Source of the DNA: an uncultured Porphyromonadaceae bacterium
GTDB taxonomy: Bacteria; Bacteroidota; Bacteroidia; Bacteroidales; UBA12481
Reading direction: 5' to 3'
Assembly (NCBI GenBank): GCA_964457845.1
Contig: CAYWHP010000003.1
Coordinates: 19,943-82,770, forward strand
Length of the DNA: 62,828 bases
Part shown: in pieces, positions 2,941 through 49,351 of the stretch
How positions within the stretch are numbered: position 1 is the stretch's first letter
Layout of the letters: the number at the start of each line of letters is the position of its first letter
Program-made: the position numbers and the translations under genes
The notes under the pieces: model-generated
Database searches by the model: none
Told to the model about the DNA's origin: nothing
Seen by the model: only the letters and a program-made list of their open reading frames with translations

Positions 2941-3110
2941 TGACGAGTGACGCGGGGGAATCGTGACGCGTGATGCGTGACGCGGGGGAATCGTGACGCG
3001 TGACGCGTGACGCGGGGGAATCGTGACACGTGACGCGTGACGCGGGGGAATCGTGACACGTGACGCGTGACGCGTGACGCGGGGGAATCGTGACGCGTGA
3101 TGCGCGATGC
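2941..3110. repeat. Tandem array of five ~30-bp units built from TGAC(G/A)CG heptamers
   Basis: Units of TGACGCGGGGGAATCGTGAC(G/A)CGTGA(C/T)GCG start at 2948, 2978, 3008, 3038 and 3075, with one extra heptamer at 3068-3074. There are no unique spacers. Confidence 0.95.
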
Positions 3111-11263: not shown

Positions 11264-11360
11264 CAATCGTAACGCGTGACACGTGACGCGTGACACGTGA
11301 CACGGAAAAATCGTAACACGATGCCTCGTGTTACGCGTCACGTGTTACGCGTCACGATTG
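11264..11360. repeat. Inverted heptamer array between convergent genes (long stem-loop)
   Basis: 11264-11290 and 11334-11360 are reverse complements at 25 of 27 positions. An inner perfect 9-bp hairpin CGTAACACG/CGTGTTACG spans 11312-11335. Confidence 0.92.
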
Positions 11361-13799: not shown

Positions 13800-13950
13800 T
13801 CGTGACGCGTGACGCGTGACGCGCAGGAATCGTGACACGCGTCACGTATCACGAATCCCAAGCTTTAGGTGTCACGCGTCACGCATCACGCATCACGAAT
13901 CTCCCGCATCACGTGTCACGCGTCACGATTCTTCCTCGTCACTCGTCACT
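13800..13950. repeat. Inverted heptamer array (CGTGACG arm, then CGTCACG/CATCACG arm)
   Basis: TCGTGACGCGTGACGCGTGACGCGCAGGAATCGTGACACG followed by a longer run of GTCACGC/ATCACGC units ending CTCGTCACTCGTCACT. Confidence 0.92.
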
Positions 13951-19031: not shown

Positions 19032-19061
19032 CGCGTCACGCGTCACGTGTCACGTGTCACG
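19032..19061. repeat. Four tandem CG(C/T)GTCA heptamers
   Basis: CGCGTCA CGCGTCA CGTGTCA CGTGTCA CG, immediately after the stop codon at 19064-19066. Confidence 0.9.
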
Positions 19062-43541: not shown

Positions 43542-46500
43542 CTAATTCCGCTTCCGCTTATTACGGTACTTCTGAACAAGGTCGCCAAACGTGTCGAACT
43601 CTTCACGATAGAACAATCCAACACCTTGAGTATAAGGTGCATACTCATATAAAAGATGATCATTGGCTCGGGTAAAAGCCTTAACCCGAACTTTCCCCGA
43701 CTGCTTGATTTTATACTCGATTTCCACATCCCCGACAAGCTGGTTGGCATTGGTGGCAGACGGTCTTACATCGACATTACCGTTTACATTGATTGTCATT
43801 CGGTTATCGAGAAACTGCTTCGACAGGGCAACCTCCACCTCATCGCTGGTAAGCTGGTCGCCGGGCCTGTAGTTGAACCCCACGTCGAAATCCTTGCTTA
43901 TCTGCGAGAGCCAGTAATTCAACTGATTGGAGAGCAATTCCGTAGTAGTGGCCAAACCGGCACTCTCGTAGCGGCTCGCAGTGCCGCTGCCTGTTCCGGC
44001 CAGCGGGGTAAAACGGTTCAGGATAAGCAGGGAGATCACCTGCTTGTTCATATCCTCTTTCGTAAGGTTCTGTAACTGAGTCCGCGCCAGGTCATTGCTG
44101 GTGGGGGGGAGAATAATGTTGAAATCGATAGCAGGGGCCTCAAGCTGGCCGCTCATCATCAAATGGCACTCCACCGGAAGCCGCTGGGTAAGATCAGGAT
44201 TCGACTCATCCTGAAGCAGATCATACAGTGCTGCTTTGGTGCGGTACACGGCATCAATATTCAGTTGCGCCCCCGAAACATCTCCGGTCCATTTCAGTGT
44301 GGCACCCGGCTCGATCTCGAGCTTCTTAACCGGCATGTTCTGAAGTGTAAACTGATAATCCCCCTTCTCGATGGTGAAATCCCCGTTCAACGTCCATCGC
44401 GAGGTTGGCGGAATCTCCACACGGAGGTTGCCGCTGCCGCGTGCATGAATCACGTTGCCCACCTTGGAGTCGAAAATGAGCTGCACCTCGGCATCGGGAG
44501 TCGCTTCGAGATCAATGGTAACCATGGCGCCATACAGGTTTACGGCATAATCCGGCTCCACCTCTGCCGAGAAATCAAGCAGGTCGGCCTCCGTCTCCTC
44601 TTTCGGCTTTCCGATATAGGTAACGAAATCCATAAAACGAGCCTCATCCGTGGTGGTCACCGGGATGTAGAATTTCGTTTTGGGACTCGTCCGCGCAGAA
44701 ACATCAATTTTCAAACTCCGCAGGGGTCCGGTGAGTGTCCCGACACCGGAAGCGTATCCCCTGCCCCAGTAGCCCTCATTGCGGGATTCAACTTCGTTCA
44801 GCAGCACAAAATCCTTGAAATCCACCTTCAGATCGAGCCGTATTTTATTAAAATCAGTGTGCCGCACCGCCCCGTTTACAGAAGCATGATTCCCTTCGTC
44901 ATCCTGCAGGTCGAGGTTGGTCACGCTAAATGCATCCGGCGTGATCACGACATTGTGCGTGAAATAAAATCGCGTATTCAGGTAATTAACTATAAATGAG
45001 GCCTTCTGAGCCATAATATGTCCATAGATCAGCGGCTTTTTACTGCTTCCCCGGATCATCACCTTGCCGGTTGCCAGCCCCTTCACATCCAGGAGCTCAT
45101 CGTACACAAACGGGTTGGCTATGTCGAGCCGAAGCTTTTCAACACTCAGATCAAGGTTAAGACTGTCGGTTACGGGATTGTACTGCCCCTGCAGCTGGAG
45201 CGTCTTGATGGCGCCCCTTTTGACAAGGACGTCCATAAGCAGGGCATCCCCGTTCTCGGAGCTCCGGCTCGACAGCGTAGTCTGCCCCATCGGCTGGCCG
45301 TTGATCGCCAGGCTGTCTATCCGCATCTCCGTCAGGAAACGCAGGCGGTTGCGTATATCAAAAATCCGGGCCGATCCGGTGATACGGCCGTCAAGCACAA
45401 AATCCTTTCCGGTTATTCGTTTGAAATTTAGCAAATTAACCCTTTGCAGATCAATATATAACGTATCCGAAGGATTGCGCGAAACCGACCCGTTCACCTC
45501 CATCTTTTCCTCATTGTGAGCCAGGGCAAAATTCTCAATACTGATTTTATCCTTGTCGGCCGATACCGCAAACCGATTGATGGTCCAAAGGCTGTCGTTG
45601 AGCACGATTCTCGATTCGGGGAACAGAAAGCTTCCGGTGAGACTGCCATCCTCGCGCTGCGCCATACCGCCCACACAGGCTATTGAGCCCCTCGATCCCG
45701 ACTGGCCGTTTTCATTCCATCTGAGCTTCATGTCGGCCAGATTACCAGATAGATAACCTCCCAGATTAATTTTTTCAAAAAGAGTACTCCGGTCAATCTG
45801 GAGCTTTCCCAGATCACCGGAAAGCAACACAGAATCACCTCTCGACATGATTCTGAAATCCAGCCCGGTAAACTGCCGCCCCATGACAACGAACTGGGGT
45901 GAGGTTCCCTCCAGCGAAAATGCCTGCTCTGCCGCATCGTAAAAGCCACCGACACGGGTGTTGTCCTTGCACTGGAAGCCGGGTATCAGGACCGTGGTTA
46001 CCGGGCCTGAATTCTTGATCTGGACATTAAAGGCAAAGCTGTTCAGGTGATCCTGTCGCACCGGCAGATTGCCGGTGACAGCCGGAACGAATTTCGCGAT
46101 CAGCGAACGGGCCTGAGGAGCCAGGTCATCAATATGAACATTTCCCACGATCCGGGCGTCGACATATTCCGATGAGAAGATTATTTTCCGCTTACCCAGT
46201 TCGGGAACCGAGGTAAGCGACATATCAGTCACCGGCAGTGTTCCCCGGCTGTTGGTGTAGCTCGAATTCCTGATCCGTATTTCGCCGTCCATTTCATCAA
46301 TGGCACTGCCGGTAAAACTGCCATGGAGATCAAGCTGCAGGCGGGCCAGCGTATCGCTTTTTATCAGGTTGAGTGCATAGAGGTCAGCTTTTTTAACCAG
46401 CAGGTCGAAATCAACAGCCGGTGTATCCTTGCTGAAATCGAAATTACCGTCAAGGTCGAGGTTTGCATTCGGGTCACGCAGGTTGATTTTTCCGTTGAAC

Positions 46501-48008
46501 CGGCTCCCTGTTGCCCTTCCGCTTATATTAAGGTACTGGAAAGTATAGCCGTTCAGTGTGAACTGTGAAACCTCTCCCGCCAGCAGGGCATTCACCGATT
46601 TTGCGCCATCCCATACGCCATCCACATTCAGGTTGAACTCCATCCCGGAGAATCCGGATGGCTGCGTCATGAGCTGGTCGGGATTAAAATCGCTGGCCGA
46701 CACCGATCCCTTGAAATTATAACCGGCAACCGGCCTGTTCTTGTTCACCTCGAGATTGGTTGTGAAATCACCGTAATCGAAGCTCCAGTTGCCCGTGGTG
46801 ATGAAATTCTCAAATGTTCCGGTAAAGACCCCGCGGTAGGTGACCGTACCGATTTTTTTCACAGCATCCGGAACATCTAGCTCGAAACCGGGTATCTGAC
46901 CGGCCAGTACATCCTCGCTGAGATTGGGCATATTCAGCTCCAGGTAGCGGGTTTTCAGGTCGAAAAAAGCCTCCTGCAGGCGGCCCGGGTAATTGTAAAC
47001 CAGGTCGCCTTCAAACGCTACCAGGCCCGGCCAGTTGACCATTGCATTCATTAGCCGTCCATTATCGGGCGAGCCGTTGAACACCCCGGCAATCTCGATC
47101 GGGTCGGTCAGCCCGGTACTGATCCCCGTGAGCAGGGTCAGGTCGATCGGACTAACATACGTTTTCGTATCAAGAACGATGTCCATTTCGGGACCATGGT
47201 TGCCCGCCCCGCTGCCGAAGATGCCGGTAACATTGGCCCTGAGGGCGCCCACATGGCTGTTCCCCGTAAGCAGTTCCAGGTTCTCCGTAAACACACCCTT
47301 CTTGCCAACCCGAATCGCGGCAGAGAACTGATTAACAAGGAAACCGCTCTGCTCCTGAAAGGATATATGGTCGATCACCGCACGGGTTTCGTCACCCTGC
47401 ATGGCGAACCGCCTTAGTGCTGCCTCGAGCCCCGTCACCAGTAAATTATCAGGATCAACCTGACCGGGCTTCTCCAGTGTCCCGAATTTTCGATACTGAA
47501 GGGAGCCGCGACGGACGAAAATCTGATCGGCGGCAACCGACAGCGGCTTCGTGGATTTAACTGTATCCGAAGATTTAAAAGATTCGAGCAGCACTTCGTA
47601 ATTCATCAGACCGGAGGGAAGCTGCCGCAGTTGAATTTTCGGATCCTCAACCACCACACGCGACAGGCTGAGCCGGTTTTTATCGATGTTGTATTTTTTC
47701 ACTGAAAGCCGGACCGACGAGGCATAGAAAAGGGTATCGTTTACGGGATCAAGGATCAGCAGATCGACCAGTTCGATTCGGTGCGGCCATCGTACCAGCA
47801 CCTTTCCCACACTCAGCCGGCCGTCATAGCGCTCCTCGATATTCGTCAGGAAGCGGTTAACCAGCCAGGTTTGAACACTCCTCATCCTCAAACTGATAAA
47901 CAGACCCGCCAGCACTACAATGAGTACTGCCAATACCGTTAAGGTCCTATTTATCGCTTTTTTAGGCAAGGAATTAAACTTTAGTAATTTTGACCCTGAA
48001 AAAATCAT
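43542..48008 (-). CDS. tamB: TamB / translocation and assembly module (DUF490) protein
   Basis: N-terminal TM anchor plus SVQTWL; long beta-rich body; C-terminal QVISLLILNRF...GDVEIEYKI...YTQGVGLFYREEFD. True start is 48008 (ATG) or 47969 (TTG), not 48107. Confidence 0.88.
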   Translation of the reverse strand: MIFSGSKLLKFNSLPKKAINRTLTVLAVLIVVLAGLFISLRMRSVQTWLVNRFLTNIEERYDGRLSVGKVLVRWPHRIELVDLLILDPVNDTLFYASSVRLSVKKYNIDKNRLSLSRVVVEDPKIQLRQLPSGLMNYEVLLESFKSSDTVKSTKPLSVAADQIFVRRGSLQYRKFGTLEKPGQVDPDNLLVTGLEAALRRFAMQGDETRAVIDHISFQEQSGFLVNQFSAAIRVGKKGVFTENLELLTGNSHVGALRANVTGIFGSGAGNHGPEMDIVLDTKTYVSPIDLTLLTGISTGLTDPIEIAGVFNGSPDNGRLMNAMVNWPGLVAFEGDLVYNYPGRLQEAFFDLKTRYLELNMPNLSEDVLAGQIPGFELDVPDAVKKIGTVTYRGVFTGTFENFITTGNWSFDYGDFTTNLEVNKNRPVAGYNFKGSVSASDFNPDQLMTQPSGFSGMEFNLNVDGVWDGAKSVNALLAGEVSQFTLNGYTFQYLNISGRATGSRFNGKINLRDPNANLDLDGNFDFSKDTPAVDFDLLVKKADLYALNLIKSDTLARLQLDLHGSFTGSAIDEMDGEIRIRNSSYTNSRGTLPVTDMSLTSVPELGKRKIIFSSEYVDARIVGNVHIDDLAPQARSLIAKFVPAVTGNLPVRQDHLNSFAFNVQIKNSGPVTTVLIPGFQCKDNTRVGGFYDAAEQAFSLEGTSPQFVVMGRQFTGLDFRIMSRGDSVLLSGDLGKLQIDRSTLFEKINLGGYLSGNLADMKLRWNENGQSGSRGSIACVGGMAQREDGSLTGSFLFPESRIVLNDSLWTINRFAVSADKDKISIENFALAHNEEKMEVNGSVSRNPSDTLYIDLQRVNLLNFKRITGKDFVLDGRITGSARIFDIRNRLRFLTEMRIDSLAINGQPMGQTTLSSRSSENGDALLMDVLVKRGAIKTLQLQGQYNPVTDSLNLDLSVEKLRLDIANPFVYDELLDVKGLATGKVMIRGSSKKPLIYGHIMAQKASFIVNYLNTRFYFTHNVVITPDAFSVTNLDLQDDEGNHASVNGAVRHTDFNKIRLDLKVDFKDFVLLNEVESRNEGYWGRGYASGVGTLTGPLRSLKIDVSARTSPKTKFYIPVTTTDEARFMDFVTYIGKPKEETEADLLDFSAEVEPDYAVNLYGAMVTIDLEATPDAEVQLIFDSKVGNVIHARGSGNLRVEIPPTSRWTLNGDFTIEKGDYQFTLQNMPVKKLEIEPGATLKWTGDVSGAQLNIDAVYRTKAALYDLLQDESNPDLTQRLPVECHLMMSGQLEAPAIDFNIILPPTSNDLARTQLQNLTKEDMNKQVISLLILNRFTPLAGTGSGTASRYESAGLATTTELLSNQLNYWLSQISKDFDVGFNYRPGDQLTSDEVEVALSKQFLDNRMTINVNGNVDVRPSATNANQLVGDVEIEYKIKQSGKVRVKAFTRANDHLLYEYAPYTQGVGLFYREEFDTFGDLVQKYRNKRKRN
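47985..47992 (+). promoter_or_regulatory. -7 element upstream of tsaD
   Basis: TAATTTTG matches TAnnTTTG, ~57 bp before the tsaD ATG. Confidence 0.45.
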
Positions 48009-48048
48009 ACCAAAATTAGAATAAAAACGGTCGCGGCCGGCAGATCTT

Positions 48049-49242
48049 ATGAGCATCACCATCTTAGGCATCGAATCATCCTGTGATGACACCTCCGCCG
48101 CGGTCATCCGCGACGGCTACCTGCTCTCCAACCGCATTGCCAACCAGGAAGTTCACCGTTCATTCGGCGGTGTTGTCCCTGAACTGGCTTCACGGGCGCA
48201 TCAGCAAAACATTATTCCTGTGGTTGAGCTCGCCATGCGCGAGGCAGGAGTAAAACCGGAGGAAATTACCGCGGTAGCTTTCACCCGCGGCCCCGGCCTG
48301 ATGGGCTCTCTGCTTGTCGGCTCCTCTTTCGCGAAAGGCTTCGCCATCGCACGCAACATACCGCTTGTAGCAGTTAATCATCTGCAGGGGCATGTGCTGG
48401 CTTTGTTCCTTCAGAAGCCGGGGGAAGATCGTGACGCGGAGGATCGTGACGCGTTAAGCGTGACGCGTGACACGGGAGATCGTGACGCGTTACACGTGAC
48501 GCGTGACACGGAAGATGGCAATAGTGTTCTCATCCCGGCGAAAGCCGGGACCCCGTCCCAACCAGCCGAAGCCACCAGGGACTTACATCACGCGTCACGC
48601 GTCACGCGTCACGTCTCCCCTTCGTTTCCCTTCCTCTGCCTCCTCGTCTCCGGCGGCCACACCCAGATCCTTGTGGTGCGCGACCATCTCGACATGGAGT
48701 TAATCGGCCAGACGATTGATGATGCGGCCGGCGAGGCATTCGACAAGTGCGGTAAGGTTATCGGCCTGCCCTACCCGGCCGGACCGGTTATCGACCGGCT
48801 CGCAAAGGAGGGCGATCCGCTGGCATTTGAATTCAGCCGGCCGAGGATTCAGGCACTGAACTACAGTTTCAGCGGCCTCAAGACCTCCTTCCTCTACTTC
48901 CTGCGTGATCGCCTGAAGGAGGACCCCGCCTTTGTTGAAAAGAACCTGAACAGCCTCTGCGCCTCACTTCAGCATACCATCGTCGAAATACTGCTCAACA
49001 AGCTCCGGCAGGCCTCGCGCCAGACCGGCATCCGCGAGATCGGCCTCGCCGGAGGCGTATCGGCCAATTCCGCCCTGAAGGCAGCCGTACGTGAGGAAGC
49101 CGTTAAACGCAACTGGAACGTTTACATCCCCGAACTGGCCTACACCATGGACAACGCCGCGATGATCGGAATCACCGGCTACTTCAAGTATCTGAAAGGC
49201 GAGTTCGCCGGGCATGATGTAGTGCCGCTTGCGAGAATGTAG
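48049..49242 (+). CDS. tsaD: tRNA N6-threonylcarbamoyladenosine biosynthesis protein TsaD carrying a 63-aa repeat-derived insertion
   Basis: ILGIESSCDDTSAAV, GGVVPELASRAH, GPGL, NHLQGH, VSGGHT, DDAAGEAFDK, GGVSAN, DNAAMI. Confidence 0.97.
   Translation: MSITILGIESSCDDTSAAVIRDGYLLSNRIANQEVHRSFGGVVPELASRAHQQNIIPVVELAMREAGVKPEEITAVAFTRGPGLMGSLLVGSSFAKGFAIARNIPLVAVNHLQGHVLALFLQKPGEDRDAEDRDALSVTRDTGDRDALHVTRDTEDGNSVLIPAKAGTPSQPAEATRDLHHASRVTRHVSPSFPFLCLLVSGGHTQILVVRDHLDMELIGQTIDDAAGEAFDKCGKVIGLPYPAGPVIDRLAKEGDPLAFEFSRPRIQALNYSFSGLKTSFLYFLRDRLKEDPAFVEKNLNSLCASLQHTIVEILLNKLRQASRQTGIREIGLAGGVSANSALKAAVREEAVKRNWNVYIPELAYTMDNAAMIGITGYFKYLKGEFAGHDVVPLARM
48427..48615 (+). repeat. Composite repeat element (heptamer arm, REP hairpin, inverted heptamer arm) inserted in frame in tsaD
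   Basis: 189 bp. CGTGAC units at 48430-48510, hairpin TCCCGGC-GAAA-GCCGGGA at 48533-48550, and CATCACGCGTCACGCGTCACGCGTCACG at 48586-48613. Confidence 0.92.
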
Positions 49243-49252
49243 GCAGGGGACA

Positions 49253-49351
49253 GGGTCCCGGCTTTCGCCGGGATGACAATCCACCAGACTAACTTACGAT
49301 AAACGCTCGCCGGAGCGTTGTCATCCCGGCGAAAGCCGGGACCCCGTACCA
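49253..49351. repeat. Inverted pair of REP-like hairpins (BIME-like) after tsaD
   Basis: Perfect 27-bp inverted repeat TTGTCATCCCGGCGAAAGCCGGGACCC at 49253-49279 (minus) and 49318-49344 (plus). The spacer contains AACGCTC-GCCG-GAGCGTT. Confidence 0.93.

Follow-up and report, generated by a model that had tools for sequence, protein, structure and literature searches.

This study concerns repeat DNA that lies in frame within an essential enzyme gene of a free-living bacterium. The DNA analysed, hereafter the window, is a stretch of 62,828 nucleotides from a 299-contig draft metagenome-assembled genome (G000) of a freshwater Bacteroidales bacterium, and it contains tsaD. This gene encodes TsaD (tRNA N6-adenosine threonylcarbamoyltransferase), an essential tRNA-modifying enzyme. 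Within tsaD we found an insert made of tandem heptamers and a repetitive extragenic palindromic (REP) hairpin. We consider it probable, at about 0.72, that this insert is a passenger, translated and tolerated, that belongs to a dispersed heptamer/REP repeat system and resembles the palindromic elements of Rickettsia.

Results

The insert is fixed in a single-copy tsaD gene and is present in RNA

By profile, fold and motifs, the protein that bears the insert is assigned to TsaD (Kae1/TsaD/Qri7 family), with a predicted role in the synthesis of N6-threonylcarbamoyladenosine (t6A). Its match to the Pfam profile PF00814 scores 301.6 bits against a cut-off of 24.8, and the insert splits the match into two stretches. 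The insert and its translation were exactly as first noted from the letters alone (Table 1), the frame is kept, and the five catalytic motifs are all in place: HLQGH (residue 111), SGGHT (201), DDAAGEAFDK (224), GGVSANS (335) and DNAAM (368). The motif residues, including those of the metal-binding HxxxH, correspond to invariant alignment columns. Outside the insert, TsaD is under strong purifying selection, with nonsynonymous polymorphism (pN) of 0.004, synonymous polymorphism (pS) of 0.109 and a pN/pS of ~0.04. A second, normal tsaD, the finding of which would have spoken against the original prediction, is absent: PF00814 matched only the tsaD locus and a TsaB-like paralogue in the whole genome, and tsaD is thus single-copy. 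The 63 codons of the insert are therefore, as had been proposed, new peptide added to the only TsaD.

The 63-codon insert was present, at invariant length, in five assemblies from different samples, this one and four further ones of the same species. Three of these four (JGI L143, L144 and L145) were obtained as DNA: the 1194-nt gene is the same, its identity to the window is 97-99%, and the insert itself has substitutions particular to each strain. In addition, two other lake metagenomes yielded contigs that cover the left junction (48000-48472), that between forward arm and REP unit (48445-48552) and the right junction (48591-49025). Support for the insert thus comes from independent samples, and it is scarcely credible that the insert is a repeat-induced chimera of a metagenome-assembled genome, even though many contigs of this draft end in these repeats and unitigs of other runs break inside the insert.

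The insert is also found in RNA. Metatranscriptome contigs cross the left junction (X18, 48181-48471; X19, 48300-48441; X22, 48300-48437), and a contig of X12 covers 48426-48581. Contigs show presence rather than absence, and within that limit none of the DNA or RNA contigs joined 48426 to 48616. Apparent joints had other letters between the two sides and came from sibling elements at other loci, as with ACCGATCAGGACGACG, the centre of the AspS insert. These data bear on the suggestion, made with the original prediction, that the insert might be removed or processed at the RNA level. Pairing of its arms could form a long stem and bring the flanks together, as would suit intron-like excision, processing of the mRNA at the stem, translational bypass or, at the protein level, splicing. 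We consider all such removal before or during expression very improbable: in three metatranscriptomes, RNA contigs pass from tsaD into the insert with no skipping joint; searches of the insert found no Rfam family, intron or ribozyme above the gathering score, and no Pfam or intein match to its peptide; and the reading frame is kept open here and in 16 other genes, with targeted TGA-to-TTA changes (described below). From these results, we conclude that the insert is real, fixed and present in RNA.

The insert is a mosaic of separately dispersed parts

The insert is composed of a forward heptamer arm, a REP unit and an inverted heptamer arm (Table 1). As read from the sequence, every block of the forward arm closes with a CGGRRGAT spacer. 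The first block is CGTGACG followed by CGGAGGAT (15 nt); the second and third, of 36 nt each, follow the pattern CGTGACG CGTTA(AG/CA) CGTGACG CGTGACA CGG(G/A)AGAT and form a tandem duplication. An 11-nt linker separates the forward arm from the REP unit, and both linkers of the insert are unique in the genome. Because the palindrome, GGGGAAGAT ... GTCTCCCC at ~48420-48619, extends a few bases past the limits first stated, the insert boundary is uncertain by ~10 nt. In the predicted RNA fold, 48481-48510 pairs with the inverted arm in a long stem (-105.5 kcal/mol, z = -5.4). Tryptic peptides expected from the insert include DTEDGNSVLIPAK, AGTPSQPAEATR and DLHHASR.

The original prediction treated the insert as a single composite element, and on this point our results differ: blastn found no second full-length copy of the 189 bp in the genome, and only parts of it recur. 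At least eight other contigs (including C110, C81, C5, C294, C129 and C16) have arrays that align with the forward arm over 60-87 bp at 87-91% identity, and these related arrays have the same higher-order organisation, in which a CGGRRGA(A)T spacer follows 3-4 units. Elsewhere in the genome, ~19 or more copies match the REP unit at 100% identity over 25-32 bp, and the reported similarity of 48527-48560 to 49318-49351, at 32 of 34 bp, was reproduced. It also held true that the parts of the insert are those of intergenic arrays; the same heptamer and REP families occur at other sites in the window (Table 1). With regard to the hallmarks of a miniature inverted-repeat transposable element, the insert has inverted arms; no direct repeat was found in its flanks, and no relative showed an empty site that would define a duplication. 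The blastn results show that the insert is a nested mosaic and not one mobile element: a heptamer palindrome is combined with a 30-bp REP unit that is dispersed on its own and with linkers that are unique.

Arrays lie in frame within at least 17 conserved genes

That the repeat system colonises coding sequence, as had been inferred from tsaD, was borne out across the genome. We found 77 array clusters within long open frames. Sixteen of the 17 open reading frames (ORFs) with in-frame arrays that were scanned are conserved genes, giving 17 verified genes with TsaD. They encode IspG, AspS, NadD, a GltD-like protein, an FAD-binding protein, Gmd, GDP-fucose synthase and a CapD-like protein, as well as a flippase, a 2-oxoacid dehydrogenase E2, peptidase M3, two TIM-barrel paralogues, peptidase M1, alpha-L-fucosidase and a UvrA-like ABC ATPase. 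The arrays are read as hydrophilic 7-residue repeats, such as ASRVTRH, PDTRYPI and RQETEDx, and the REP peptides 'PAKAG' and 'PAFAGMT' are likewise found inside several other ORFs.

The arrays within genes show the mark of the reading frame. Three consecutive CGTGACG units give a TGA in every frame, whereas in the reverse orientation no frame is closed. Runs on the sense strand of genes comprise at most two units when forward and reach three to four when reversed. A TTA variant, GTGACRCGTTAnnnGTGAC, occurs nine times in the genome, and six of these occurrences lie on the sense strand of verified genes (twice in TsaD, and in NadD, AspS, the FAD protein and the flippase). In contrast, the canonical TGA form occurs 252 times in the genome and not once on the sense strand of ORF arrays. 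This contrast is partly a matter of ascertainment, because only open frames were collected; it nonetheless reveals the forms that persist in genes. That the replacement is uniformly TTA points to a shared coding-competent subfamily or to a mutational bias. Replacement of the in-frame TGA in the forward arm is a constraint that makes sense only if the insert is translated.

We found no conserved gene that an array had broken out of frame, on inspection by eye with no profile search. Thirty candidate splits of this kind were rejected, by start-codon position and again by eye, as intergenic arrays between co-directional genes or as antisense frames. The lack of such interruptions is a further point against removal of the insert during expression.

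Two cases show how repeats are combined in other proteins. The GDP-fucose synthase-like gene (C176:2028-3282) carries three in-frame repeat inserts. The first joins heptamers and a REP unit ('GVTRHASLEPAPAKAGVT'); the second and third are both a G-rich unit ('PLLNKEGAGGGQGAGGG') whose family is found, too, at the start of the peptidase M1 ORF on contig C98. The two xylose-isomerase-like TIM-barrel paralogues (C59:22053-22099 and C270:618-662) have arrays at the same position that belong to different families, 'ERQKTEDIRQKTEDGR' and 'KTLDRRHETLDRRHE'.

The insert occupies a permissive loop

In ~80 TsaD proteins of Bacteroidales outside the genus, which are 334-343 aa long, 9-17 residues lie between LALF and PxFPFLCL, with 24 in one of them. 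The statement that this loop is usually short thus held, and no equally long loop was found among these relatives. Compared with the TsaD of T. maritima (PDB 6n9a chain D), the insert is located between residues 125 and 130. An AlphaFold2 model built from a 46-sequence alignment has a confident core, with 264 residues at a predicted local distance difference test score (pLDDT) of at least 90 and a predicted TM-score (pTM) of 0.80. This core superposes on solved TsaD structures with TM-scores of 0.88-0.91 and a root-mean-square deviation of 2.1 Å; its matches to TsaD of E. coli, Salmonella and T. maritima lie at TM-scores of 0.84-0.91. Residues 129-186, on the other hand, have a pLDDT below 50 and no secondary structure. 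Accordingly, the model places the insert as a disordered segment between the helix with the HxxxH metal ligands (residues 111-120) and the strand at 195-200. Because loop length varies among relatives and the insert is disordered on a confident core, this surface loop appears permissive.

The insert peptide escapes the constraint that acts on TsaD

We compared four tsaD DNA sequences of the species. The 189-nt insert contained seven nonsynonymous substitutions and one synonymous, and the rest of the gene four and 31, respectively (Fisher p = 7e-5). These data indicate that the insert peptide is outside purifying selection, while TsaD itself is strongly constrained. Several of the substitutions in the insert turn one known variant of the family into another (TTAAGC into TTACGC, for instance, or CTCATCCC into GTCATCCC).

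A difference between strains was also found in ispG, which encodes an essential isoprenoid enzyme. Compared with the ispG array of this genome (C124:8729-8872), that of a strain variant (protein P0209) has one extra unit of 14 residues (42 nt), 'DPSRHSSLVTRHSS'; apart from one H/R change inside the array, these strain proteins are otherwise identical. In essential genes, therefore, arrays continue to gain or lose units in frame.

Loop sites are conserved among congeners and their content is replaced

Heptamer arrays are abundant, in differing families, in all the same-genus genomes searched except G004, and few or none were found outside the genus. In 13 of 16 congeners, the TsaD loop holds heptamer arrays or REP hairpins of other families (Table 1). 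The IspG loop of congeners contains CTGGTCA, CCGAYAA, CCGATAC plus REP, REP alone or nothing, and the AspS loop contains CGTCACT, CATCACT, GGTTTCG, reversed CCGAYAA or long composites. Within a genome, one family may be used at TsaD, IspG and AspS alike: CCGAYAA in G008 and CGTSACG in G000. In the sister species, TsaD is ~93% identical outside the loop, and the loop holds only 'ERHSSPVTRHF', a short reverse arm; its IspG reads 'PDTRYPTPDT', from a family other than that in G000. From these results, we conclude that the loop sites are conserved and their content is replaced among congeners. The plan to align relatives and so define an empty site and a target duplication yielded neither, given the occupied loops of the 13 congeners and the short reverse arm of the sister species. 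As judged from these alignments, the occupation of the tsaD site is apparently ancient, as opposed to a new insertion at an empty site. The occupation of the same loop in most species cannot be explained by random insertion.

These comparisons also bear on whether local slippage alone could account for the heptamers, such that they arose and evolved in place with no copying between loci. In many bacteria, no long simple-sequence repeats are as over-represented as heptanucleotides, for which slippage has been put forward as the cause (Mrazek et al. 2007, as reported in PMC4692102 and PMC4679880). Moreover, the two 36-nt blocks of tsaD are a tandem duplication, and the IspG array differs by a 42-nt unit between strains. 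We nevertheless find slippage alone quite improbable. More than 100 loci contain this one family in an identical higher-order arrangement (3-4 units, then a CGGRRGA(A)T spacer), and the use of one family at many loci in one genome cannot be explained by slippage in place. Nor does slippage alone fit a REP unit identical to copies elsewhere, or a sister species so close in protein sequence with different families in the same loops. Finally, runs never exceed four units, which open-ended slippage does not predict.

Two congeners merit separate mention. In G014, tsaD is split over the ends of two contigs (C144/C501, loci L098 and L099) inside at least 10 perfect CGAGACA units followed by CCGATAC units; an ENA assembly, P0003 (385 aa), spans the broken array. 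G014 thus has a long, slippage-prone array in an essential gene. G004, which belongs to the same genus and is 98% complete, has no heptamer arrays and no Y1 transposase, and its TsaD, IspG and AspS loops are repeat-free. This genome is a natural negative control for finding the copying machinery.

Repeat families in the window and the genome

The window contains 31 matches to the heptamer pattern, against 0.05 expected, and three to the REP core, against 0.01 expected. Genome-wide, we counted 238 runs of CGTGAC(G/A) with at least two units, at 137 loci; runs of CGTGACN comprised two units in 125 cases, three in 61 and four in 58, and none was longer. Runs are separated by CGGRRGA(A)T spacers of 8-9 nt, producing super-repeats of 29-37 bp (for example, at window positions 2941-3110). 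Tandem Repeats Finder, at a score of at least 50, reported 197 arrays of period 7 versus three of period 6 and 48 of period 8, and the control for the heptamer pattern had no match in G000. The dominant family is CGTSACG, with runs of up to four units, often in forward and inverted arms; the several heptamer families of the genome are, in canonical form, ACGCGTC, ACGAGTG, ACACGTG, ACCCGAT, ACATGAG and others. The wider REP family, GTCATCCCSGC-N4-GCSGGGA, has 123 copies. Loosely defined hairpins lay within 100 bp of arrays in 16 of 375 cases versus 8.4 expected, a noisy comparison whose null ignored the intergenic bias of both. The REP doublet downstream of tsaD (49246-49351) matched Rfam mir-629 at 48-51 bits on both strands, below the gathering score of 72, and we therefore regard this as a generic hairpin match and not a family assignment.

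The genome contains a single Y1 transposase gene (C190:359-688), bracketed by inverted hairpins CCCCGCACTTTAGTGTGGGG (31 copies). It scores as IS200-like and reaches 25.6 bits, against a cut-off of 80, with the NCBIfam model for REP-associated tyrosine transposases (RAYTs). Three 48-bp tandem repeats, each with a TCCCCGCCTGCGCGGGGA hairpin, precede the gene, and the arrangement of the gene with its own hairpins resembles that of a RAYT with its REP family. The search for a parent element, which covered Y1 transposases only, found no link between the Y1 gene and the heptamers, and its flanks differ from them. As a driver of the arrays, Y1 (IS200/RAYT) was considered and set aside: it is missing from the array-free G004 but occurs in genomes outside the genus that have no arrays, array load is not reflected in its copy number, and the G000 copy is flanked by a different hairpin family.

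With respect to the neighbourhood of tsaD, a TamB-like ORF of 1521 aa (43542-48107, minus strand) overlaps the first 59 nt of the listed tsaD; its true start is probably further downstream. The gene order TamB - TsaD - CarbopepD_reg_2 is kept in the sister species.

Table 1. The tsaD gene, the parts of its insert, related repeats in the window, and the TsaD loops of congeners. Positions are those of the window.
Feature	Position	Strand	Description
tsaD	48049..49242	+	397 aa including insert; Pfam PF00814 at 8e-90
In-frame insert	48427..48615	+	189 nt, 63 codons; modelled as a disordered loop
Forward arm	48430..48516	+	CGTGAC(G/A) heptamers (48430-48508); three blocks of 15, 36 and 36 nt
TTA codon, first 36-nt block	48454..48456	+	Replaces in-frame TGA of family consensus
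TTA codon, second 36-nt block	48490..48492	+	Second replacement of in-frame TGA
REP unit, 30 bp	48530..48559	+	Hairpin TCCCGGC-GAAA-GCCGGGA at 48533-48550; read 'IPAKAGTP'
Linker, 26 nt	48560..48585	+	No second genome copy (blastn of insert centre matches elsewhere in the REP part only)
Inverted arm	48586..48613	+	CATCACG(CGTCACG)x3; read 'HHASRVTRH'
REP doublet	49253..49351		Just past tsaD stop; units 49255-49274 (-) and 49323-49342 (+); sibling of intragenic REP, outside insert
Intergenic array	2941..3110		tsaD heptamer family (30-bp super-repeat), then REP hairpin
Intergenic hairpin	11264..11360		tsaD heptamer family, forward and inverted arm
Intergenic arrays	13800..13950		tsaD heptamer family, forward and inverted
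Short array	19032..19061		tsaD heptamer family, reverse orientation
TsaD loop, G014			(CGAGACA)n + (CCGATAC)n; contig broken inside array
TsaD loop, G010, G008, G018			CCGAYAA, read 'TDNRQPITDN'
TsaD loop, G007			CCGTCAN
TsaD loop, G009			CCGATAC
TsaD loop, G011, G017			GACSGMW arrays with inverted arms
TsaD loop, G006			REP hairpin, read 'SVIPANAGT'
TsaD loop, G004, G012, G005			Short, 9-15 residues, repeat-free

Discussion

Our results favour the view that the tsaD insert is a passenger, with a peptide that would have no function of its own, of a genus-wide system of tandem 7-bp units and separately dispersed REP hairpins. According to this model, the loop would have been colonised once by a heptamer array, in the ancestor of the core clade of the genus. 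Its content would later have been overwritten by the families active in each genome through copying between dispersed arrays, whether by ectopic gene conversion, by template switching or by insertion targeted at existing arrays. The REP unit may have nested into the tsaD array recently, and copy number would shift by slippage of higher-order units. Selection within genes would act as a filter only, admitting lengths that are multiples of three, frames with no stop, hydrophilic disordered peptides and tolerant sites. Stops would be avoided by the change of TGA to TTA in the forward arm and by use of the reverse arm, which is open in all frames. The enzyme itself would have to tolerate the added segment.

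Several observations weigh against this model. The insert has 0.042 segregating sites per site versus 0.125 at synonymous sites outside it, a threefold reduction (binomial p = 1.6e-4), which indicates that the insert DNA is more constant than neutral, irrespective of codon position. Such slow divergence fits homogenisation by sibling copies, and it fits a function of the DNA or RNA hairpin equally well, a function not expected of a mere passenger. The length of the tsaD insert, too, is invariant in the five assemblies. With regard to expression, metatranscriptomes may contain DNA, and the RNA contigs are short unitigs that break inside the repeat; none was seen that spans the whole insert or crosses the right junction. 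Translation of the insert is something that we infer, not a protein-level observation. Lastly, the analysis identified no enzyme for the copying step, and Y1 gene numbers do not track array load.

The constancy of the DNA raises the question of whether the insert is functional as nucleic acid: its mRNA or DNA hairpin could be a regulatory or processing element (a translation pause, an RNase target or a protein-binding array) that is under selection, with the peptide as a by-product. The strong predicted hairpin, the constant length, and the combination of reduced polymorphism with codons that lack protein-level constraint are all consistent with such a function. We consider it unlikely, as the loops of congeners hold unrelated families, some of which have no inverted arm (G010, G008, G018 and G009), and three members of the genus (G004, G012 and G005) have no array. 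Furthermore, the same repeat DNA is found in intergenic gaps and in 16 other genes of unrelated function, and gene conversion by more than 100 sibling copies also predicts slow divergence.

A more far-reaching proposal, possible though doubtful, is that the genus has an active, undescribed mechanism, either a dedicated enzyme or templated copying, that writes and overwrites 7-bp arrays at existing array sites. The loops of TsaD, IspG and AspS would then be repeatedly re-coded with the current family, and the conservation of the insert DNA would reflect what the machinery needs for recognition or templating. Such an array-writing mechanism might possibly exist in many other Bacteroidales.

If the tsaD insert is a tolerated passenger, then a free-living bacterium can harbour, within its essential enzymes, repeat DNA of a kind usually regarded as intergenic. 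Such repeats would yield disordered protein segments that differ between sister species and even strains, and so allow new protein sequence to arise rapidly in a setting other than that of Rickettsia. The origin of heptamer repeats has been an open question since they were first noted in cyanobacteria and in genome surveys. Sites that are conserved while their content is replaced, together with conservation at the level of DNA but not of peptide, offer a handle on the origin and spread of bacterial heptamer repeats. At a practical level, short-read assemblies break at these inserts, predicted proteins come out longer, and both annotation and homology-based modelling can be led astray.

Among known systems, the heptamers are best placed with the over-represented heptanucleotide long simple-sequence repeats of bacteria. 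These include the STRR sequences of cyanobacteria (Calothrix/Nostoc) and the GGGAATC repeats of Xanthomonas, in which four units are preferred (PMC4692102), as well as the TAACTGA heptamers of Beggiatoaceae, Cyanobacteria and a few Bacteroidetes (PMC4679880); as published, they are mainly intergenic and under-represented in coding regions (PMC4692102, PMC4679880). The arrays described here share with them 7-bp units at many dispersed loci, lineage-specific families, some inverted pairs and a preferred or limited run length. Also alike are the occupation of the same loci in relatives with variable content, and the closure of one orientation by stops with the other open. Unlike these repeats, the arrays described here are found in at least 17 conserved genes, several of them essential, where they are read as translated; several coexisting families replace one another at fixed protein loops; and arrays are combined with REP hairpins. 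Our literature search found no description of in-frame translated heptamer arrays in Bacteroidetes.

REP elements, and the REPINs and RAYT transposases associated with them, offer a second comparison; REPs are extragenic by definition (PMC3116915, PMC3733652). The REP unit of tsaD is likewise a short GC-rich hairpin with more than 100 copies, often in inverted doublets (such as that at 49253-49351), and the genome likewise has a single-copy Y1 gene flanked by its own hairpins. In contrast to REPs, the tsaD copy and several others lie inside ORFs. Moreover, the hairpins beside the Y1 gene are of another family, CCCCGCACTTTAGTGTGGGG, the gene falls below the RAYT cut-off, and no cognate RAYT was identified.

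Repeats inside genes are also known from other lineages. Those of Borgs, extrachromosomal elements of Methanoperedens, are said to evolve fast, to lie in frame inside genes in units that are multiples of three bases, and to create disordered protein regions. The units in tsaD differ in being 7 bp long, such that three copies are needed to restore the frame, and they are not on archaeal extrachromosomal elements. In Nostoc, very small mobile repeats are reported, in work by Elhai et al. from 2008, to be nested in tandem heptamer arrays and inside genes; the repeats in tsaD belong to another phylum and have other sequences.

The closest precedent, as the original prediction had proposed, is that of the Rickettsia palindromic elements. 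In the account of Ogata et al. (2000) given in PMC10969869, these are discrete elements of ~100-150 bp with a family consensus, regarded as selfish passengers. The tsaD insert resembles them as dispersed palindromic repeat DNA (hairpin z = -5.4) that lies in frame in unrelated housekeeping genes (17 in this genome) and is read as peptide at fold-compatible sites, here a loop that is disordered in the model. It differs in that it is a mosaic with no full-length copy, and thus no discrete consensus, and in that its arms are tandem 7-bp units. Its host, moreover, is a free-living freshwater Bacteroidales bacterium rather than an obligate intracellular alphaproteobacterium, and the same protein sites are occupied across the genus by different families.

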